Assembly (NCBI GenBank): GCA_018260615.1
Contig: JAGWDQ010000040.1
Location: forward strand, 1 to 10,802
Direction: 5' to 3'
Origin: Candidatus Altarchaeum sp.
GTDB lineage: Archaea; Altiarchaeota; Altiarchaeia; Altiarchaeales; Altiarchaeaceae
DNA: 10,802 bases
The translations under genes and the position numbers were made by a program. This document shows, piece after piece, positions 599-10,580 of this stretch. The stretch's first letter is position 1; every line of letters starts with the position of its first letter. The notes under the pieces were generated by a model. The model did not search any database, had not been told where the DNA came from, and saw only the letters and a program-made list of their open reading frames with translations.

Positions 599-1558
599 TT
601 ATACTTCTTTATTTTCACTTTCTATATCTGTTTGTGCTTCGTCATTTTCTTTTTCCACATCTGTTTGTGCTTCGTTATTTTCACTCTTTATATCTGTCTG
701 TTCGTCTCTATTTTCACTCTTCACATCTTTTTTCTCTTCTTCACTCTCTTTCACATCTTCTTTCTCTTCTTCACTCTCTTTCACATCTTTTTGCTCTTCT
801 TCACTCTTTTTTACCTCTTTATTTCTGGATATCAGCCGTGCCACAGTTATAAATCCTGTATGTGCTATCATCCTTGAACACGGCCTTACTACTTTCATAT
901 CCCAGTCCCGCAATACACATTCATAGGTCTCCTGAAGGAAATTTATATTTAACGCATCATGAAATTTTTTTGACTGCTCAATGCTCGGGCTGAACGAAAT
1001 CAGAATTCCCCCGATTTTTAACTTTTTCACTGCATGAGGAATAACTAACCACGGCTCCGGCAGGTCCAGAATTACCGCATCCAAATTTTCCTCGTCAATA
1101 CCTTCATATATATTTTTCATCTTTATTTCAACATTGTCAATTCCAAATCTCTCAAAATTTTTTCCCGCAATTTTCGCAAAGTCGTCCCTGATTTCATAAC
1201 TTATTACTTTTTCAGGATAAACGATATGGGCAAGAAAGATATCCAGAATTCCCGAGCCGGTTCCCGAATTTAAGACCTTGCTTCCAAAATGTAAATTTGC
1301 ATAGCCGACAATCAAAGATGCGTCCTTTAATGTGATTGCCTGCGGACCTCTTCTTGCCTTTTGCATTATGTCCGTAATATTCGGGTGAATAACCGCATAT
1401 TCAGTTCCCATATGTGTTTTCACAGTTCCTCCGACATCACAATTATTAATTTCATCTGCTTTAATCATTCCGTCTTTTGTATGCATATCTTCTCCCTTAA
1501 AGATGTATTTCCTTCCTTTAGGGTCTATTAAAATTTTCATATCAGTAAACATTTTCAT
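599..1558 (-). CDS. trmI: tRNA (adenine-N1)-methyltransferase, TrmI/GCD14 family, with a low-complexity C-terminal extension
   Basis: Family motifs RRGPQAITLKD, SAM-binding GTGSG, YEIRDDFA, catalytic LDLPEPW, FSPSIEQ and RP..RMIAHTGF. The start could be 1558, 1552 or 1540. Confidence 0.92.
   Translation of the reverse strand: MKMFTDMKILIDPKGRKYIFKGEDMHTKDGMIKADEINNCDVGGTVKTHMGTEYAVIHPNITDIMQKARRGPQAITLKDASLIVGYANLHFGSKVLNSGTGSGILDIFLAHIVYPEKVISYEIRDDFAKIAGKNFERFGIDNVEIKMKNIYEGIDEENLDAVILDLPEPWLVIPHAVKKLKIGGILISFSPSIEQSKKFHDALNINFLQETYECVLRDWDMKVVRPCSRMIAHTGFITVARLISRNKEVKKSEEEQKDVKESEEEKEDVKESEEEKKDVKSENRDEQTDIKSENNEAQTDVEKENDEAQTDIESENKEV
626..814 (-). repeat. Coding tandem repeats in the trmI tail: 3 x 33 bp and 3 x 30 bp
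   Basis: 33-bp units at 626-658, 659-691 and 692-724 (DIKSENNEAQT-like). 30-bp units at 725-754, 755-784 and 785-814 (DVKESEEEKE-like). Confidence 0.92.
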
Positions 1559-1578: not shown

Positions 1579-1887
1579 TTAGATATATGCGGCATTGTTT
1601 TCTGCGTTTTTCTTTAAATTTTTTAAATTTTCCTGTTCAATAATTATGTTCCTGTCAATTTTCTTTTCGTTAAAAAACATAAAGTCCCTTCTTAACAGCC
1701 GGACAAAAATTTTATCGGGAAGAACCTCCAATGCAATTACTCCTTCCCTTTCTAACTTTTTTATTTCTTTTTGCACTACATCCTTTCTCATTCCAATTTC
1801 TTTGACTAGTTCGTCTGTTGTTATGGGATACCTTTTCATTAAAATTTTTATTATTCGTTCCTGTAATTTGTTAGTCACATCTTTCAT
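1579..1887 (-). CDS. Winged helix-turn-helix DNA-binding protein / putative transcriptional regulator
   Basis: QERIIKIL..YPITTDELVKEIGMRKDVVQKEIKKLEREGVIALE..PDKIFVRL fits a three-helix plus beta-wing pattern. Starts 3 nt after the ligase stop. Confidence 0.75.
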   Translation of the reverse strand: MKDVTNKLQERIIKILMKRYPITTDELVKEIGMRKDVVQKEIKKLEREGVIALEVLPDKIFVRLLRRDFMFFNEKKIDRNIIIEQENLKNLKKNAENNAAYI

Positions 1888-1890
1888 TTT

Positions 1891-2940
1891 TCATTTTACC
1901 GAAGGCAGTTCAAATTTTGGCCTGATTATTTTCCATATACCTTCACTATAATCCTTATCATTAAGCATTGCAAATATTATACTTTTAAATTTTAAATTAT
2001 TTTTGGAAATATATTCCGCCTGTTCTTTTCTGCTGCCGAACTTATTTTTTATTTCTTCGGTTTTAGACAAACAATGTGTTTCTATTTCTTTAAATTTTGT
2101 CTTATACTCATCTTCCCTGTTTTTGACCCATCCGTAAAATTCATCCGGTAAATCCTTTAAAAGACCTTCTAAATTTTGCCTGTTTTTCAGACATTCGTAT
2201 ATGCTTAAAGTAGAAAAATTGGCAATTACTTTATGTAGCCGTAAGTAATCCTCACATTTGATTTTTAGCCGTAATCCATTGCTAAATTTAAATACAACGC
2301 CTTCGTCTTCATTTCCTTTTAAATTTTTAATATAGTCCAACGTCTCTTTTAAATTTTTATCTATTTTCTGAGGATATTCAAAGCCCAGCCGTTTTGCTTC
2401 TTTTATATAGTCAATTTCTTTTCCTGTTTTATTGTTAATTACCGCCAGCAAATAAAGTGTTTCTTTTCCCTGATAATCAACAATAATTTTACTTTCCGAA
2501 CAGACAATTTCAAATAAATAAGTGTAGTTCTTTTTAAAATCTTGCCTTTTAAATTTTCTCTTCCGAATATATCCGGTAGCCCAAACAGACTGTTCCGATT
2601 CAAAACTGCCCCGGGTAGCAATACATGGTTTTTCTTCGTCAAAATAAAGTATGCCTAAACAACCGTCTATTTTAACATTAATCAGAGGAATTTCCAGGGG
2701 TAGATTTTCTATTTTTGTCTCTTCTGTTTCGTTGAGATTAAAAAATTTTTTAAACGGTCTTGCTATAATATTTCCTTCCGTATCAGTTATAAGCCCTCTT
2801 GTCTGTATAGTATATTCATCCCACTTTCTTTCATACTGGCATTCTTTATTGTAATTCCATATAAATATATCAAGTGAGGGATGTTTCTTACATAAGATAT
2901 ATTTTTTTCTTTTTCTTAGTTCATCTAAATTAATGTTCAT
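1891..2940 (-). CDS. ATP-dependent RNA ligase, T4 Rnl1-like
   Basis: Nucleotidyltransferase motifs in order: I KIDG, Ia ATRGS, III YTYLFEI, IIIa LYLLAV, IV EGVVFK, V RLKIKCEDY. The N-terminal RGLI..EGNIIARPFKKFFN segment is typical of Rnl1-like ligases. Confidence 0.88.
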   Translation of the reverse strand: MNINLDELRKRKKYILCKKHPSLDIFIWNYNKECQYERKWDEYTIQTRGLITDTEGNIIARPFKKFFNLNETEETKIENLPLEIPLINVKIDGCLGILYFDEEKPCIATRGSFESEQSVWATGYIRKRKFKRQDFKKNYTYLFEIVCSESKIIVDYQGKETLYLLAVINNKTGKEIDYIKEAKRLGFEYPQKIDKNLKETLDYIKNLKGNEDEGVVFKFSNGLRLKIKCEDYLRLHKVIANFSTLSIYECLKNRQNLEGLLKDLPDEFYGWVKNREDEYKTKFKEIETHCLSKTEEIKNKFGSRKEQAEYISKNNLKFKSIIFAMLNDKDYSEGIWKIIRPKFELPSVK

Positions 2941-2996: not shown

Positions 2997-4079
2997 TTAA
3001 AATTTCATTTCCTTTAAAATTTCTCTTATTGCTAGTAAGTCAATTTTTGACTGTGGTTTTACCGTGTCGCTATAAAGATCCGAAAATAAGATGCCTGCTT
3101 TAATCAAAAAATTTAATGCCTTATAATCAACGCGAGAACAATCAGCCACATCGGAATTTTCAAATTCTTTGAACACTTCTATTACTTTTTTGAATAATTC
3201 CCCATCAGTTAATTTTAATTCGCTCAACCTTCTCCAAATGGAAGATTCGGTTATGTTTTTGTAACTATCAACTACTTCACTTAATTCTTTTCCCCACTTC
3301 TTCTTGTATATCGCCTGTATCAAATTCCCGATCTTCCCGCCGAAATTATCAATGGCATAATTTGCATCTTCATCGCTAAATTTATATTTTTTCAAAAATT
3401 TTCTTGCCGTTTCTTCATCAAAATCATCAACAACAATATAATTTGCCCTTCCATCTAACCTCGCTATCTCATGAACCTTTTTAATAAACAAAATATCCGA
3501 TGATAAGACAAAGATATAGCATAGATGCAATTCCTTTGTTAAGCGAATGAAGAACTGAAATAAGTTGTAAATCGTGAATTTATCCACATATTTATCCATC
3601 ATCTGAATCTCGTCAATTATCCACACGGGATGCTTTCCGGATGACTCCATGTCTCTCATAATATCTTTAATATGCGTAAACAAAAAGACCCTGTTTTCCT
3701 CTTTAAACCATTCATTTAGCGATTTTTCTGATGCAGGAATGCCGGAATATATCTTTGCCTTTGTGGTTTCATTTGTTTTTTGCACATCGGACTCTCCGAA
3801 TAACTTTTTGAACATACCGTCTGTTTTCCCAAACAAATCTCTCAAAAGACCAATTCCGTCAGAAAAGTCCCTAGCCCTTAAATTTGTATAAAAAACGACA
3901 TAATTGCTTGATAATTCTTCAATTAAATTTGTGATTAACGCCGTCTTTCCGGAATTCATCGGGCCATAAATGAAATTGAGCAGTTGCGGCTCTGTTTTTA
4001 AAATGTGTAAAATTTCTTCTTTTTCCCTTTCCCTGTTAAAAAATTCAATACTATATTCAAAATTTTTAGAGGCATTCAT
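2997..4079 (-). CDS. Archaeal ATPase (ATPase_2 / MJ-type STAND family), copy E, most divergent
   Basis: FFNRE N-terminus, Walker A GPMNSGKT, Walker B WIIDEIQ, and LTKELHLCYIFVLSSD. The start overlaps the copy D stop (ATGA). Confidence 0.88.
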   Translation of the reverse strand: MNASKNFEYSIEFFNREREKEEILHILKTEPQLLNFIYGPMNSGKTALITNLIEELSSNYVVFYTNLRARDFSDGIGLLRDLFGKTDGMFKKLFGESDVQKTNETTKAKIYSGIPASEKSLNEWFKEENRVFLFTHIKDIMRDMESSGKHPVWIIDEIQMMDKYVDKFTIYNLFQFFIRLTKELHLCYIFVLSSDILFIKKVHEIARLDGRANYIVVDDFDEETARKFLKKYKFSDEDANYAIDNFGGKIGNLIQAIYKKKWGKELSEVVDSYKNITESSIWRRLSELKLTDGELFKKVIEVFKEFENSDVADCSRVDYKALNFLIKAGILFSDLYSDTVKPQSKIDLLAIREILKEMKF

Positions 4080-5197
4080 TTTGTTTCAATTTCCTTTAAA
4101 ATTTCCCTTATCGCCAAAAGATCAAATTTTGACTGTGGTTTTATTATTTTTTCTCTCGTATCAACAAACAATATGTTTTTTGAAACTAAATAACACAGTT
4201 CGGGAGTTATCACGGAATATTTATAAAAGTCGTTCCCGGAAAAATTTTTCAATATCTCTGTTGTATTTTCATAATTAACATCAATGTCCTTTCCCTGGTA
4301 TTTTATCGTTACACCAATTGTCTTAATGTAGTATAACAGTTGTGCGATTTCTTCCTTTGAATCAGCAAGACCTTTTTCTACATAGTCATTTAGACCCCTT
4401 CCGATTTTCTTCTCATCTATCATCGTTGTAAGTAATGACGGTTTTCCACCAACATAGTCATTTGCCAGTTTTATCTCTTCTTCTGTAAATCCATACTTTT
4501 CCAAAAATTTTCCTGCTGTTTTTTCATCAAAATCATCAACTAACAAGTATCGGCATCTGTTTTTAAGCATTGCTTCACTATAAACCTTTTCAATAAATAA
4601 TGAATCAGAAGACAAAGCAAAAACATGGCAAAGATGTAATTCTTTCGTTAAGCGGATGAAGAAATTAAACAATTTGTAAATCAATTTTCCGTTAATTTCC
4701 AGATCCCCTATAACCTGCAATTCATCAATGATCAAAACCGGAATTTTTTCTTCACTTATTTTCAGAAAATACTCTTCCAAAAATTCAAAAACATCCTCGG
4801 AACTTTTGGTTTCAAGAAATCCGTCAAGCATATCTTTTTCTATCGGAATGCCTGACAGGTATCTTCCTGCCAGTACAAGTGCCTTTTTAGCGAGCTTTTC
4901 GCCTTTTTCTATTACCTTTTCAGATATTTCTTTTCTCTTAACTTTGAATAACACCCTTACAAATCCGCCATATTCTTTTATCAGTTTTCCCCGCAGATTT
5001 ATATAAAAAACAGCATATTTGTCTTTTGGCAAATCATCAATTAAACTCGTTATTAAAGTTGTCTTTCCGCTATTTATTGGCCCGTAAATAAAATTTATGA
5101 AATTTGGCTTTGCTCTTAAAATGCGCATAATTTCCTCTTTCTCCTTTTCCCTGTTAAAAAATTCAATGTCGTATTCAAATTTTTCGGTTGTATTCAT
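4076..5197 (-). CDS. Archaeal ATPase (ATPase_2 / MJ-type STAND family), copy D
   Basis: FFNREKE, Walker A GPINSGKT, Walker B LIIDELQ, and LTKELHLCHVFALSSDSLFIE, as in the Methanocaldococcus jannaschii paralog family. Confidence 0.92.
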   Translation of the reverse strand: MNTTEKFEYDIEFFNREKEKEEIMRILRAKPNFINFIYGPINSGKTTLITSLIDDLPKDKYAVFYINLRGKLIKEYGGFVRVLFKVKRKEISEKVIEKGEKLAKKALVLAGRYLSGIPIEKDMLDGFLETKSSEDVFEFLEEYFLKISEEKIPVLIIDELQVIGDLEINGKLIYKLFNFFIRLTKELHLCHVFALSSDSLFIEKVYSEAMLKNRCRYLLVDDFDEKTAGKFLEKYGFTEEEIKLANDYVGGKPSLLTTMIDEKKIGRGLNDYVEKGLADSKEEIAQLLYYIKTIGVTIKYQGKDIDVNYENTTEILKNFSGNDFYKYSVITPELCYLVSKNILFVDTREKIIKPQSKFDLLAIREILKEIETK

Positions 5198-5276
5198 TTT
5201 ATCTTTATTTCTTTCTGTTAAAATTATACTCCGATACCAATATGAGCAATTAAAGCAAAGACATCAAATAAATTTA
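5055..5276. repeat. Shared ATPase 5' module plus leader, present three times (also 6354-6575 and 7680-7901)
   Basis: Copies B, C and D share MNTTEKFEYDIEFFNREKEKEEIMRILRAKPNFINFIYGPINSGKTTLIT and the same leader sequence, with only scattered mismatches. Confidence 0.9.
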
Positions 5277-5389
5277 CTGTCTTGTCATTATTTAAATCAT
5301 AATATGCTTCAGAGCAAGTTAAATTTTCTAAATCTTTCTGTCCGCTTAAATATTGAGGCATTTTAACCATTCATAAGTTGTATTCATTT
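5187..5389. repeat. 13-bp direct repeats bracketing the C-D spacer (same arrangement at 7812-7824 / 8002-8014)
   Basis: GTTGTATTCATTT at 5187-5199 and 5377-5389, which reads AAATGAATACAAC on the minus strand. Confidence 0.85.
5224..5370 (-). CDS. Orphan dockerin-like mini-ORF, 48 aa (MVKMPQYLSGQKDLENLTCSEAYYDLNNDKTVNLFDVFALIAHIGIGV); may be a gene remnant
   Basis: Hand-translated, ATG 5370 to TAA 5224. Homologous to the C-terminal tail of the 9138-10580 protein (VEMLEYLSGQK...LLDVFALI). DLNNDKTVNLFD fits a dockerin/EF-hand-type Ca loop. Confidence 0.55.
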   Translation of the reverse strand: MVKMPQYLSGQKDLENLTCSEAYYDLNNDKTVNLFDVFALIAHIGIGV

Positions 5390-6496
5390 CATTTCCTTTA
5401 AAATTTCTCTTATTGCGAGCAAATCAAGTTTTGACTGCTGTTTAACATAGTCCTTAACACAATCAGCAAATAATATATTTTTACTTACCAAATATCTCTT
5501 TGCAGTTTCGTTTATTTCGTCACTGTTTCTCCTTTCAACATCTTTAAATTTTTTCATCGTTTCTAATAAGACCTCATGACTTACTGGAAATGTCGTATCC
5601 CTGACTTTTATTTCATCACCGAATTCTCTGACATCCCTTAAAATTGACTTTATTTCACTCTTTCTTTCCAAAATCATCTGTTCAATGTACTTATTTCTGT
5701 CATTAGAAAGAATATAGTCCGCTAATGTTCTCGGCTTCCCCCCCAGATAATCATAGGCAATTTTTTGTTCTTCTTTACTGATTTTATATTTTTCCAAAAA
5801 TCTTTTGATTGTTTGTTCGTCAAAATCATCAATTAGTAAATACTTACATCTTCCCTGCAGTATTGCTTCAGCATAGACCCTTTCAATGAATAATGAGTCA
5901 GAAGATAAAGCAAAGACATGACAAATATGTAGTTCTTTTGTTAATCCAATGAAGAAGTTAAACAATTTATAAATCAGTTTTCCGTCAATTTCCAGATCGC
6001 CAATCATCTGTAATTCATCAATTACCAAAACAGGCGTTTTGTGTTTTGCAATGTTTTTAAAATATTCTACAAGATAGTTAAACACATCTTCATTACTTTT
6101 TTCTTTGAAAAATGTTTCAAGCAAACTCTTATCCACAGGAATTCCATGGGATTTATATAATGTCTTTTCTCCTGTGGAAGTGATATGTTTTAAGACCTTT
6201 GTAAAAATATTTTTGATTTTTTTTAAGAATCCTCCTTCTTCAATTGCGAATAAAACCCTGATAAAATCCTCATATCTTATAATTGATTTTCTCCTTAAAT
6301 TCACATAAAAAACAACATAATTTTCAGGCAGATTTTCAATTAAATTTGTAATCAAAGTTGTCTTTCCGCTGTTTATTGGCCCGTAAATAAAATTTATGAA
6401 ATTTGGCTTTGCTCTTAAAATGCGCATAATTTCCTCTTTCTCCTTTTCCCTGTTAAAAAATTCAATGTCGTATTCAAATTTTTCGGTTGTATTCAT
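5384..6496 (-). CDS. Archaeal ATPase (ATPase_2 / MJ-type STAND family), copy C
   Basis: Walker A GPINSGKT and Walker B LVIDELQ. N-terminus shared with B and D, middle shared with A. Confidence 0.92.
   Translation of the reverse strand: MNTTEKFEYDIEFFNREKEKEEIMRILRAKPNFINFIYGPINSGKTTLITNLIENLPENYVVFYVNLRRKSIIRYEDFIRVLFAIEEGGFLKKIKNIFTKVLKHITSTGEKTLYKSHGIPVDKSLLETFFKEKSNEDVFNYLVEYFKNIAKHKTPVLVIDELQMIGDLEIDGKLIYKLFNFFIGLTKELHICHVFALSSDSLFIERVYAEAILQGRCKYLLIDDFDEQTIKRFLEKYKISKEEQKIAYDYLGGKPRTLADYILSNDRNKYIEQMILERKSEIKSILRDVREFGDEIKVRDTTFPVSHEVLLETMKKFKDVERRNSDEINETAKRYLVSKNILFADCVKDYVKQQSKLDLLAIREILKEMK
6018..6321. repeat. 304-bp identical direct repeat, copy 1 (copy 2 at 8655-8958)
   Basis: Offset 2637. 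Encodes the inter-Walker segment of copies C and A. Similarity with scattered mismatches continues down to about 5863/8500. Confidence 0.92.
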
Positions 6497-6522
6497 TTTA
6501 TCTTTATTTCTTTCTGTTAAAA

Positions 6523-6702
6523 TTATACTCTGATACCAATATTATCAATTAAAACAAAGACATCAAATAAATTTATATCGTCATCATTACTTTCAACAAA
6601 TTTATAATGTGGCTTATCATGACCTAATGTTGTCTTTTCTCAGCTTAAATATCCGGGCATTTTAACTGCATCAAAGATGCCGGTTGCTTTTTCACTTAAT
6701 AG
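6523..6702 (-). pseudogene. Remnant of a surface-protein dockerin-like C-terminal tail with an in-frame TGA
   Basis: Reads LLSEKATGIFDAVKMPGYLS*EKTTLGHDKPHYKFVESNDDDINLFDVFVLIDNIGIRV*, aligning to LLWTKAKDLFDAVEMLEYLSGQK...YYKFVGNENSEITLLDVFALIDKI. The TGA at 6642-6640 sits where the other copies have GGA. Confidence 0.8.
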
Positions 6703-7822
6703 TTAATGTGTTATCATCAATTTCTTTTAAAATTTCTCTTATACCTGTTAAAATTATCCCTGACTGTATCTTTATAGTTTCCTTTTGTGGATTTATAAAT
6801 AAAATGTTTTTCCCGGATAAATAAATCTTTTCTGCCCTGCTTATTCCCGCATCTCTTATTTCTTCCTTATCTTTAAACATTTTTAGTATTTCAATTACTT
6901 TATCTCTTTCAACGGGAATTTTTTCTTCACCTTCTTCCATCTCTATTTTTGGTTTTACATACAACAATTTATCAAGCATATCTGATATAAGGCGCCTTTT
7001 CTCAGCAATTTTCTCCTGAACAACTGAATTTATTTCTTTGCCTTCTTCAAGCAATATTCTCAAATCCCCGGGTTTCCCTCCGAAATATTTTATTGCCTTA
7101 TTTATGTCCTTAAATTTGTATTTCTTCAAAAATTTCCCTGCATTTTCTTCATCAAAATCATCAATCAAAATATAATTTGTCCTTCCTTCAAGCATCGCCT
7201 CATTATAAACCCTTTCAATGAACAAAGAGTCAGAAGACAAAGCAAAAACATGGCAAAGATGTAATTCTTTCGTTAAGCGGATGAAGAAATTAAACAATTT
7301 GTAAATCAATTTTCCGTTAATTTCCAGATCCCCTATAACCTGCAATTCATCAATGATCAAAACCGGAATTTTTTCTTCACTTATTTTCAGAAAATACTCT
7401 TCCAAAAATTCAAAAACATCCTCGGAACTTTTGGTTTCAAGAAATCCGTCAAGCATATCTTTTTCTATCGGAATGCCTGACAGGTATCTTCCTGCCAGTA
7501 CAAGTGCCTTTTTAGCGAGCTTTTCGCCTTTTTCTATTACCTTTTCAGATATTTCTTTTCTCTTAACTTTGAATAACACCCTTACAAATCCGCCATATTC
7601 TTTTATCAGTTTTCCCCGCAGATTTATATAAAAAACAGCATATTTGTCTTTTGGCAAATCATCAATTAAACTCGTTATTAAAGTTGTCTTTCCGCTATTT
7701 ATTGGCCCGTAAATAAAATTTATGAAATTTGGCTTTGCTCTTAAAATGCGCATAATTTCCTCTTTCTCCTTTTCCCTGTTAAAAAATTCAATGTCGTATT
7801 CAAATTTTTCGGTTGTATTCAT
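6692..7822 (-). CDS. Archaeal ATPase (ATPase_2 / MJ-type STAND family), copy B
   Basis: Identical to copy D from Met1 to SSDSLFIE, then a different C-terminal half. Confidence 0.92.
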   Translation of the reverse strand: MNTTEKFEYDIEFFNREKEKEEIMRILRAKPNFINFIYGPINSGKTTLITSLIDDLPKDKYAVFYINLRGKLIKEYGGFVRVLFKVKRKEISEKVIEKGEKLAKKALVLAGRYLSGIPIEKDMLDGFLETKSSEDVFEFLEEYFLKISEEKIPVLIIDELQVIGDLEINGKLIYKLFNFFIRLTKELHLCHVFALSSDSLFIERVYNEAMLEGRTNYILIDDFDEENAGKFLKKYKFKDINKAIKYFGGKPGDLRILLEEGKEINSVVQEKIAEKRRLISDMLDKLLYVKPKIEMEEGEEKIPVERDKVIEILKMFKDKEEIRDAGISRAEKIYLSGKNILFINPQKETIKIQSGIILTGIREILKEIDDNTLTIK

Positions 7823-8062
7823 TTTATCTTTATTTCTTTCTGTTAAAATTATTGTTCGGTAACAATATGAGCAATTAAAGCAAAGACATCAAGTAAATTT
7901 ACTGTCTTGTCATTATTTAAATCATAATATGCTTCAGAGCAAGTTAAATTTTCTAAATCTTTCTGTCCGCTTAAATATTGAGGCATTTTAACCATTCATA
8001 AGTTGTATTCATTTCATTTCCTTTAAAATTTCTCTTATTGCGAGCAAATCAAGTTTTGACTG
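7230..8062. repeat. 833-bp direct repeat, copy 2 (copy 1 at 4605-5437)
   Basis: See copy 1. Covers the 3' end of ATPase A, the spacer, and the 5' half of ATPase B. Confidence 0.92.
7849..7995 (-). CDS. Orphan dockerin-like mini-ORF, 48 aa (MVKMPQYLSGQKDLENLTCSEAYYDLNNDKTVNLLDVFALIAHIVTEQ); may be a gene remnant
   Basis: Hand-translated, ATG 7995 to TAA 7849. LLDVFALIAHIVT matches LLDVFALIDKIVT at the end of the surface protein. Confidence 0.55.
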   Translation of the reverse strand: MVKMPQYLSGQKDLENLTCSEAYYDLNNDKTVNLLDVFALIAHIVTEQ

Positions 8063-9124
8063 TGGTTTTATTGTCTCATTAGCACATTCGGCAAATAAAA
8101 TATTATCCTTGACAAGATACATTTTTATTACTTCACTAATATCATTGGCAGATATTTCATCTTTTTCACCAAACATTTTAAGTGTTGAAATTACCTTGGT
8201 ATAATCAACATTGTAAGAAACATTGTTATATTTTATTTCACTTCCGAATTCTTTGAGTTTTCTTAAAGTATCATTTGTTTCCTTCTTTCTGCTTTCCAGC
8301 ATTTCTTTCACTTCATTCATTATCTCTTTTCCCCTCTTTTTTGCATCTATGATTCTGATTAAATGTGCGGGCTTCCCCCCGATGTTTTTGTAAATAAGTT
8401 TCTGTTCCTCCTTGTTAATATTATATTTTCCTAAAAATTTCAAGGTTGTTTCTTCATCAAAATTATTTATTAGTAAATATCTGCACCTGTCTTTAAGTAT
8501 TGCTTCATTATAGACCCTTTCAATAAATAAAGAGTCAGAAGATAAAGCAAAGACATGACAGATATGCAGTTCTTTTGTTAAACCAATGAAAAAATTAAAC
8601 AATTTATAAATCAGTTTTCCATTAATCTCAAGACCGCCAATCATCTGTAATTCGTCAATTACCAAAACAGGCGTTTTGTGTTTTGCAATGTTTTTAAAAT
8701 ATTCTACAAGATAGTTAAACACATCTTCATTACTTTTTTCTTTGAAAAATGTTTCAAGCAAACTCTTATCCACAGGAATTCCATGGGATTTATATAATGT
8801 CTTTTCTCCTGTGGAAGTGATATGTTTTAAGACCTTTGTAAAAATATTTTTGATTTTTTTTAAGAATCCTCCTTCTTCAATTGCGAATAAAACCCTGATA
8901 AAATCCTCATATCTTATAATTGATTTTCTCCTTAAATTCACATAAAAAACAACATAATCATCAGGTAAATTTTCAATCATGTCTGTTATTAAAGTTGTCT
9001 TCCCGGAGTTTATTGGACCATAGATAAAATTGAGCAGTTGCGGCTCTGTCCTTAAAATGTTCAAAATTTCCCGTTTTTCATTTTCCCTGTCAAAAAATTC
9101 AATTTTTCGGATGTTTGGTTTCAT
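8009..9124 (-). CDS. Archaeal ATPase (ATPase_2 / MJ-type STAND family), copy A
   Basis: FFDRE, Walker A GPINSGKT and Walker B LVIDELQ. ATG 9124 is preferred over TTG 9163, which overlaps the upstream gene and adds residues absent from the paralogs. Confidence 0.9.
   Translation of the reverse strand: MKPNIRKIEFFDRENEKREILNILRTEPQLLNFIYGPINSGKTTLITDMIENLPDDYVVFYVNLRRKSIIRYEDFIRVLFAIEEGGFLKKIKNIFTKVLKHITSTGEKTLYKSHGIPVDKSLLETFFKEKSNEDVFNYLVEYFKNIAKHKTPVLVIDELQMIGGLEINGKLIYKLFNFFIGLTKELHICHVFALSSDSLFIERVYNEAILKDRCRYLLINNFDEETTLKFLGKYNINKEEQKLIYKNIGGKPAHLIRIIDAKKRGKEIMNEVKEMLESRKKETNDTLRKLKEFGSEIKYNNVSYNVDYTKVISTLKMFGEKDEISANDISEVIKMYLVKDNILFAECANETIKPQSKLDLLAIREILKEMK
8655..8958. repeat. 304-bp identical direct repeat, copy 2 (copy 1 at 6018-6321)
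   Basis: See copy 1. Confidence 0.92.
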
Positions 9125-9137
9125 AGTTTGTTTAAAT

Positions 9138-10580
9138 TTATCCTCCTGTAACAATTTTATCAATCAAAGCGAAGACATCTAATAAAGTTATCTCTGAATT
9201 TTCATTTCCAACAAATTTATAGTATCCTGGAATATTGCTATAACTTAATTGGTTGAAATTTTTCTGTCCACTTAAATATTCAAGCATTTCAACAGCATCA
9301 AAAAGGTCTTTTGCTTTAGTCCACAATAAATGTGAGTAAGAAACTCCTTCTTCAATACCCCAAACATTGTTGAAGTCCCATGCAGAATAAATGCCAATGC
9401 TCTTGTAGTAGAAATCACTCTTATTCGCTTGATTATAGGTAACGTTTGCTGAGATATTGCCTATTGCATTCGCTGGGCCGGAGCCAGTCCACCATCCACT
9501 ATTATTAACTACTGGAGAATCCCATCCAAAAAGTCCCACAAGTCCCCCAACATTAGTGGTCCCATTTACACTACCAGTTGAATAAGAATTATAGATGCCT
9601 GAAGTACCATAGAATCCACCACCAAGGCGCCCTAGATCGCCTACAAGACCGCCGACATTATTATTGCCCGAAACATTTCCTGTAGCATAAGAGTTATAAA
9701 TGTTCGCTCCGTTAATTTCTCCAATTAAACCACCAACGCTATTGTTACCTAAAACATTTCCGGTAGCATAACAATCTCTTACTGTAGCTGTATTTATGTG
9801 GCCTATCAGACCGCCCGTAGCGGTTCCCTGAGATATAACATTTCCAGTGGCAAAACATCGCTCTATTATATCTTGCCCTAAATGCCCGGCAACACCAACC
9901 AAACCACCTATATAATATGTTTCATTTGAACTGCTGGAAACAGTGGCAGCAGAGTAGGAATCATAAATTGATGTTGATTCAATTCTCCCTATCAACCCTC
10001 CACCACTATGTGAATCCGCTGAGAGTGTACCTGTGGATGAACAGTTAGTGATCACCGATGTCTCAGCCCAACCTCCCAGCGCACCAACCATGGAGTTTCC
10101 TGTTATGTTAACTTCTCTTAAGTGAACATTCCTAATAATTGCATTTTTCATACTACTTAATAACCCTACATTCGTCGAGGATGATATGTTTATGTACAGA
10201 CCTGTTATGCTTTTCTCATTTCCGTCAAGCGAACCAGTAAATGGAATATATGGGGATTCCCATACGCTACCATGACCCACAGGAATAAATCCTGCTCCGG
10301 CGTTCCAATTCTTGGTATCTGTGCAGTTTATAGAGTTATTTAGAGCATAACTTAAAGTCAAATTTTCATTCATTGCCTGTAATTGAGTGCAATTAGTAAT
10401 TATGCATGGATTTCCCGATGTTCCGTCTCCTGCCATTCCTGACGGACATGATGCATTCACATTCGTACTTAAAACCACAATAATTCCTAAAAAAACCAAA
10501 GCCAAAATCCCTAAATTTTTTAAATTTCCAAAAATTTCATTCCCCTTTGGCATTTCGCCAGCAAAATTTTTTGCATCCAT
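9138..10580 (-). CDS. Secreted GLUG-repeat surface (glyco)protein with a C-terminal dockerin-like tail
   Basis: Hydrophobic signal region ending NVNA|S. GLUG-family N-terminal signature GDGTSGNPCII..CTQLQAM...WNAGAGFIPVG...FTGSLDG. Repeated (V/I)GGL(V/I)G and (C/S)(Y/F)ATGNV motifs, and at least 14 N-x-S/T sequons. Confidence 0.85.
   Translation of the reverse strand: MDAKNFAGEMPKGNEIFGNLKNLGILALVFLGIIVVLSTNVNASCPSGMAGDGTSGNPCIITNCTQLQAMNENLTLSYALNNSINCTDTKNWNAGAGFIPVGHGSVWESPYIPFTGSLDGNEKSITGLYINISSSTNVGLLSSMKNAIIRNVHLREVNITGNSMVGALGGWAETSVITNCSSTGTLSADSHSGGGLIGRIESTSIYDSYSAATVSSSSNETYYIGGLVGVAGHLGQDIIERCFATGNVISQGTATGGLIGHINTATVRDCYATGNVLGNNSVGGLIGEINGANIYNSYATGNVSGNNNVGGLVGDLGRLGGGFYGTSGIYNSYSTGSVNGTTNVGGLVGLFGWDSPVVNNSGWWTGSGPANAIGNISANVTYNQANKSDFYYKSIGIYSAWDFNNVWGIEEGVSYSHLLWTKAKDLFDAVEMLEYLSGQKNFNQLSYSNIPGYYKFVGNENSEITLLDVFALIDKIVTGG

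Follow-up and report, generated by a model that had tools for sequence, protein, structure and literature searches.

The stretch of DNA analysed here, called the window, is an entire contig (C40, 10,802 bp) of a metagenome-assembled genome (MAG) of Candidatus Altiarchaeum (2.2 Mb, 33% GC). Our subject is a short dockerin-like tail that ends a surface-protein gene in this window and reappears, without the rest of that gene, among the ATPase genes that follow. The minus strand carries every gene of the window, and the transcription order runs from the surface-protein gene through ATPases A to E to a T4 Rnl1-like RNA ligase gene (Table 1). A four-way DNA alignment showed that the orphan tails B, C and D are all homologous to the last 180 nt of the surface-protein gene. 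A preliminary description of this DNA had located these copies from the sequence; its coordinates were all correct, as was the 29/33 match (four differing positions) between the two 33-mers that it compared. The most likely start of ATPase A is the ATG at 9124, rather than the TTG at 9163 of the open reading frame (ORF) listing. The window is a short-read MAG contig with internal stretches of 300–780 nt that are 100% identical, and the order and mosaic structure of units A to D could be partly a product of assembly. The alternation of tails and ATPases is also seen on other contigs and in other assemblies.

Table 1. Features of the window from the surface-protein gene onward, in transcription order
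Feature	Position	Strand	Evidence or remarks
Surface-protein gene, 480 residues	9138-10580	-	N-terminal signal/anchor (hydrophobic N-terminus in translation), GLUG repeats (Pfam Glug E=8e-20), dockerin-like C-terminal tail
Intact tail A, C-terminal 59 codons of surface gene	9138-9317	-	AlphaFold2 (AF2) model: two helices, predicted local distance difference test score (pLDDT) 78
ATPase A (ATPase_2 N-domain, MJ1010-like C-domain)	8009-9124	-	Pfam ATPase_2 E=2e-52, MJ1010-like_2nd E=1e-19
11-nt ATPase-start remnant, junction type ii	8002-8012	-	Overlaps ATPase A stop, directly before tail B; recurs at 5377-5387 and on contig C44
Orphan tail B, 48-codon mini-ORF	7849-7995	-	Lacks first 8 tail codons; Leu-to-Pro in helix 1; Dockerin_1 19.9 bits, below cut-off
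Conserved spacer, tail stop to ATPase start	7823-7851	-	Also upstream of tail-less ATPases in relatives
ATPase B	6692-7822	-	Last 8 codons overlap start of tail C in a different frame
Orphan tail C, remnant	6523-6702	-	In-frame TGA at 6640-6642
ATPase C	5384-6496	-	Pfam; 100% identical to A across ~300 nt of N-domain
11-nt ATPase-start remnant, second copy, junction type ii	5377-5387	-	Sequence comparison of junctions
Orphan tail D, 48-codon mini-ORF	5224-5370	-	Near-identical to B except 3' end, which resembles C
ATPase D	4076-5197	-	Pfam; 100% identical to B over tail and first ~600 nt of ATPase gene (~780 alignment columns)
ATPase E	2997-4079	-	Abuts D with overlapping stop/start, no tail; layout as in arrays outside the genus
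T4 Rnl1-type RNA ligase gene, directly after ATPase array	1891-2940	-	Pfam RNA_lig_T4_1 E=3e-21
Small helix-turn-helix gene (Lrs14/Sta1-like), next after RNA ligase gene	1579-1887	-	

Below, G000 denotes the MAG that contains the window, G001, G002 and G003 are sister species of the same genus, and contigs named without a genome belong to G000. About 19 long ORFs of G000 terminate in an intact tail, and the ATPase subfamily comprises 15 full-length paralogs and two fragments. All 12 of the orphan tails or tail fragments that could be classified adjoin ATPase genes (three each on C40, C44 and C81, the rest on C104, C117 and C136), and they correspond to the last 40–180 bases of surface-protein genes. 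Eight of the 15 ATPases have a tail or fragment no more than 35 nt upstream, a figure that rises to ten within 180 nt, and nine have a tail within 30 nt downstream; four (C40-E and those on C20, C130 and C16) have none. Because only ~0.01 chance adjacencies are expected from ~31 tail copies and 15 ATPase genes in 2.2 Mb, the eight upstream and nine downstream cases lie far beyond chance. An ATPase gene follows only three of the ~19 tail-bearing surface genes (C40, C104 and C136). The census thus bears out the repeat unit of surface-protein tail plus ATPase gene proposed in the preliminary description, and the linkage recurs across the genome and in the sister species, with one amendment to the layout: a tail also lies 3' of the last ATPase in the arrays on C104, C136, C81 and C44, so that tails stand on both sides of the ATPases and not only before them.

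The junctions themselves proved informative. From the stop codon of the tail to the start of the ATPase there is a conserved spacer of ~30 nt, which belongs to the ATPase unit because it is also present before tail-less ATPases in G003 (C212) and G002 (C102). Stand-alone surface genes have no such spacer, and their ends share ~9 nt with its first bases. The opposite joint, from the ATPase stop codon into the next tail, takes three forms. In type i (C104, C136, G002:C39) the stop is followed by an ATG, a 10-nt string equal to ATPase codons 3–6, and a tail that runs from its first codons. Type ii (window B and D, C44) has an 11-nt ATPase start that overlaps the stop, in an arrangement that mirrors directly abutting ATPase pairs, and the tail begins at its ninth codon. 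In type iii (C81, C44, G002:C102, G001:C53) the last ~45 nt of a tail follow the stop at once. Types i and ii therefore both carry a 10–11-nt remnant of an ATPase start beside the upstream stop codon, and ATPase codons 3–5 have a 7-nt string in common with the first tail codons. These stubs indicate that short microhomologies were the points at which tails entered arrays of abutting ATPase genes. Every type is common to several loci, and types i and iii are also common to several species (type iii being found in G000, G001 and G002), which points to few founding events, older than the species split.

Two loci with such junctions have further peculiarities. On C81, a small HicB/UPF0150-like ORF (12588–12857) separates the array's first ATPase from an orphan tail with its conserved spacer, so that tail plus spacer can precede a non-ATPase gene. 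An element of ~55 nt (12854–12907) stands after the 3' end of this ORF and overlaps its stop codon; it has dozens of copies genome-wide, 81–90% identical and many at contig ends, and is probably a repeat resembling a miniature inverted-repeat transposable element. On C136, the 256-codon 'surface gene' starts within a ~90-nt repeat (105–198) that is found at 85–97% identity on many contigs of G001–G003, and this gene is itself probably a truncated remnant.

When 30 relatives were searched with the tail-spacer-ATPase junction DNA, matches were confined to three other species of the genus. G003 has the order ATPase, broken tail, frameshifted ATPase, tail on C212; four contigs of G002 have tail-ATPase or ATPase-tail pairs; in G001 an ATPase is followed by a tail stub; and in A. 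hamiconexum a tail fragment lies on the same strand as an ATPase gene, ~830 nt upstream of it. A metagenome scan for the pattern of tail end plus spacer found nothing, and a scan with a shorter tail motif returned 11 contigs, of which one, from A. hamiconexum, combines a tail fragment with a nearby ATPase. Arrays of these ATPases in another Altiarchaeales lineage, in Methanocaldococcus and in other MAGs are often tandem and contain no tails; the linkage was therefore acquired within this lineage and does not belong to the working of the ATPase. Arrays also shrink, or grow, by recombination, as the site between a helicase gene and argJ illustrates: G000 (C44) has two ATPases and three tail pieces there, G001 only a scar in which the 3' end of an ATPase is fused to a partial tail.

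Tail decay in situ is seen as well. A long surface-protein gene of G003 (C223:9100–9400) has a dockerin-like tail broken by a stop between its two helices, with no ATPase nearby. Tandem repeats of ~27 nt, all of one family, were observed before the spacer of a tail-less ATPase (G003:C212, L080:1980–2100) and before an orphan half-tail (G003:C215:1930–2040).

The central part of the tail has a history of its own. Within the window, tails B and D are near-identical and A and C share a longer, YKFV-type centre, so that the three distinct centre types described earlier were roughly right. Genome-wide, an alignment of 18 tails resolved four indel-defined types, each occurring both in orphans and in genuine surface genes. 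It had also been suggested that the orphans derive from paralogs other than the adjacent gene, and their centres do match the tails of other surface-protein paralogs rather than that of the neighbour. Type i junctions occur with two centre types, as do type ii junctions; gene conversion through the conserved ends of the tail has therefore exchanged the centres, and the orphans did not arise separately at each locus. Mosaicism extends beyond the tails: in units B, C and D the spacer and the gene start are 100% identical, and blocks of 90–94% identity link different paralogs between loci.

The reading frames of the orphans, on the other hand, have fared poorly. Among ~20 orphans in five genomes only three have an ATG-led frame over most of the tail, namely B and D of the window, which are copies of each other, and a 57-codon frame on C104 that begins one base past the ATPase stop. 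Elsewhere there are in-frame stops (window C, G002:C39, G003:C212), lost start codons (G002:C39, C44), a 2-nt insertion (C136) and a 1-nt deletion (C81), and the other orphans are stubs of 13–22 codons. Mini-ORFs B and D are without the first loop and part of helix 1, and have in what is left of that helix a Leu-to-Pro replacement that recurs in several other orphans. All five codon differences between B and D are non-synonymous, in a codon-position comparison of two pairs only that is too small to decide the matter. Judged on these sequence features, the 48-codon ORFs are probably not genes, and they should not be annotated as such.

Taken together, we think it rather probable that the orphan tails are non-coding 3'-end relics of dockerin-type surface-protein genes that now reside within an amplifying ATPase repeat unit. 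Tandem arrays of directly abutting ATPase_2/MJ1010-like paralogs would be the ancestral state of the family. At short microhomologies, a small number of illegitimate recombination events in the Altiarchaeum lineage would have linked the opening codons of an ATPase to the beginning of a tail, and the stop region of the tail to the upstream spacer of an ATPase, with the outcome that ATPase genes came to be flanked by ~170-bp direct repeats of the gene end while the surface gene stayed intact. Homologous recombination between the tail repeats, and between the conserved ATPase N-domains, may then have amplified, contracted, relocated and homogenised the units, and gene conversion with the ~19 genuine tails would have swapped the orphan centres. 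The orphans would not be translated into functional proteins, and any role would be a passive one, as homology blocks; the earlier suggestion that they act as recombination anchors is possible in at least this passive sense.

Such relics resemble the tandem-duplication joints and gene fragments left by illegitimate (microhomology) recombination, in which the start stub of the next gene is likewise fused to the end of an unrelated gene, strings of 6–10 nt are shared at the joints, and the fragments decay afterwards. They differ in that the scar has spread to at least five loci in four to five species, and in that its centre now derives from functional paralogs through gene conversion. If this account is right, the case shows how an unrelated gene family can recruit, as its flanking repeat, a short and highly conserved coding module that many genes contain, and how this module can then drive the amplification, contraction and spread of the family. 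It reveals no new molecular machine. ATPase copy numbers in short-read MAGs of this lineage are unreliable.

Several points weigh against the relic account. The order of events is something that we can only infer. Among the loci compared there is no clean pair of filled and empty sites with collinear flanks: in G003 the ortholog of the C104 surface gene (on C191, 80% identical across 2.7 kb) carries a single tail without an ATPase, yet the DNA downstream of it is different and not collinear, and the other orthologous slots, those of C81 and C136, are occupied in relatives by unrelated filler DNA or variable content. Even the smallest fragments keep the last ~45 nt of the tail, which could reflect selection on that piece, and three orphans have retained open ATG-led frames. 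Finally, MAG assembly of near-identical repeats may distort the details.

The strongest alternative is a self-propagating ATPase cassette that has the tail repeats as its functional ends, would be amplified through them and could be released again as in the proposed life cycle of restriction-modification genes. The tails would then be the working ends of an integrase-free element that homes to the conserved dockerin-coding ends of surface genes without breaking them, and that shuffles anchor modules as it does so. For restriction-modification genes, insertion with long target duplication was reportedly described by Nobusato et al. in 2000. The process, followed by amplification through the flanking repeats, is known from bacteria, no archaeal case having remained after filtering (Furuta, Abe and Kobayashi 2010, PMC2853133), and of the known systems it comes closest to the tail-ATPase arrays. 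In both, transposase and integrase are missing (the units here consist of an ATPase gene alone, with no mobile-element gene, one array on C81 adding the small HicB-like ORF), direct repeats of more than 30 bp copy the 3' end of a host gene that remains intact, and the unit is tandemly amplified, here with 100%-identical blocks. On C104 and C136 such repeats bracket the ATPase next to an intact surface gene, the intact and orphan tails being 93% identical over 168 nt and 80.5% identical over 190 nt, respectively. Both unit ends also share short microhomology with the two tail ends, and the lack of an ATPase at the G003 ortholog of the C104 surface gene is in keeping with an insertion.

There are also differences. 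The cargo is an archaeal ATPase paralog instead of a restriction-modification system, the repeat is itself a gene module with ~19 genomic copies, and among the Altiarchaeum loci compared no clean filled/empty pair was found. The junctions are few, old and shared between species, which fits inheritance and homologous recombination better than repeated new insertions. Moreover, several arrays (C44, C81, C117) have no surface gene at the site, and no recombinase is linked to the units. We regard an active cassette as unlikely; if true, it would give archaea a counterpart to the life cycle ('insert with long duplication, amplify, release') that has been proposed for restriction-modification genes.

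Less likely still, and in our judgement improbable, is that the 3' end of the tail and the spacer are kept as promoter or leader of the downstream ATPase, such that only duplicates with both stay expressed. The retention of the last ~45 nt would find an explanation here, since these pieces adjoin the spacer on C81, C44 and G002:C149, and in G002:C102 and G001:C53 directly follow the stop of an upstream ATPase. At G003:C212, where the spacer is deleted, the tail end abuts the ATPase start, and between species the orphan beside argJ shows the same conservation as argJ (88%). However, the spacer alone precedes the tail-less ATPases, the terminal orphans precede no ATPase at all, and AT-rich boxes are everywhere in a genome of 33% GC.

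It is very improbable that the orphans serve as a silent store of alternative anchor modules, to be gene-converted into surface genes so as to change their cohesin-like partner. Orphan centres do belong to the same four types as the expressed tails, and exchange has clearly occurred; the tail centre of the C104 surface gene differs from that of its G003 ortholog and matches its own downstream orphan, and cohesin-domain genes are present in the genome. Yet conversion may have run in either direction, many orphans would be poor donors given their damage (Leu-to-Pro, stops, truncations), and the linkage to ATPase genes would be left unexplained. The least credible of these readings, that the 48-mers are translated as small cytoplasmic adaptors of the ATPases, draws on the open frames in the window and on C104 and on the 48-mers having the best Dockerin_1 scores within the window, but it is unsupported in view of the unconserved frames, the non-synonymous differences, the missing loop and helix-breaking proline described above, the lack of a signal peptide and the absence of the linkage outside one genus.

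The dockerin identity of the tail, which the preliminary description had proposed, held up only at a borderline level in profile and structure searches. Within the window, Pfam Dockerin_1 (PF00404; gathering threshold 22.9 bits) matches the mini-ORFs only, at 19.9 and 18.0 bits and thus below the cut-off, and a Pfam search gave no Dockerin_1 match to the intact tail of the surface protein itself, in agreement with the earlier remark that the calcium-binding loop of the mini-ORFs is more canonical than that of the full protein. The most canonical paralog of the genome (C88) reaches 22.8 bits over profile positions 2–55 of 57, just under the threshold. A profile built from 14 tails found dockerins as its sole matches in the PDB, at an E-value of about 0.8. 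The AF2 model (pLDDT 78) has two helices, and in a Foldseek search of the PDB dockerins gave the best template modelling (TM) scores (0.54–0.55, root-mean-square deviation 2–3 Å; ranks 2–3 by E-value), with E-values of about 5 that are not significant. Both calcium-binding loops are found in the distant paralogs C88:27889, C60 and C87; the ATPase-linked subfamily lacks the first loop and has the second only in DLNND- and DLDNN-type centres.

Like type I dockerins (PF00404; PDB 4uyp_B, 5m2o_B, 6kg9_A), the tail is a C-terminal module of ~60 residues in secreted proteins, with two helices, a D-x-N-x-D-type loop before each in some paralogs, and cohesin genes in the same genome. Unlike them, it scores at or below the family cut-off, has lost the first loop in the ATPase-linked copies, has a YYKF-type insert in place of the second loop in many copies, and belongs to a subfamily limited to four of the 61 genomes of the class, all of one genus. 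This evidence, borderline but all in one direction, makes it plausible that the tail is a lineage-specific, partly degenerate dockerin-like anchor. The genome has three Cohesin (PF00963) matches above the cut-off, on C84 and C130, and the three proteins are candidate partners of the tail family. Cohesin-domain ORFs lie at C84:26181–27569 and C130:12868–13221, and canonical dockerin-like loops were detected nearby on C84 (tblastn, 26907 and 32737). A literature search for Altiarchaeum together with dockerin found no paper.

All five ATPases of the window match ATPase_2 (PF01637; 134–179 bits) and MJ1010-like_2nd (PF21690; 36–71 bits) above the cut-offs, and the ATPase matches PDB 3bjo with E=2e-13. 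They share the two-domain architecture and the tandem arrays of the ATPase_2/MJ1010-like family (PDB 3bjo, 3h92), which is multi-copy in Methanocaldococcus jannaschii, and differ in that surface-gene tails separate the paralogs only in Altiarchaeum. PADLOC and NCBIfam searches with the ATPases returned only weak matches at the level of the P-loop, none of them convincing, and a literature search for PF01637 and archaea gave nothing useful. A fusion of ATPase and dockerin through read-through or frameshifting was considered and ruled out, as the frames differ and stops intervene; it is also unlikely because the anchor of a secreted protein makes little sense on a cytoplasmic ATPase.

Across ATPases A to E (2997–9124), the near-identical N-terminal ATPase domain is homogenised in 100%-identical blocks, the MJ1010-like C-terminal domain is 30–60% identical at the DNA level, and a conserved stretch of ~20 codons ends each gene. 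This layout looks like a variable 'specificity' domain set between conserved recombination blocks.

At the far end of the window (599–1558) lies a GCD14/TrmI-like tRNA methyltransferase gene whose product has a C-terminal extension of ~90 residues, acidic, rich in Lys, Glu and Ser and imperfectly repeated. The opposite strand of this extension reads as a long Phe/Leu-rich pseudo-ORF.

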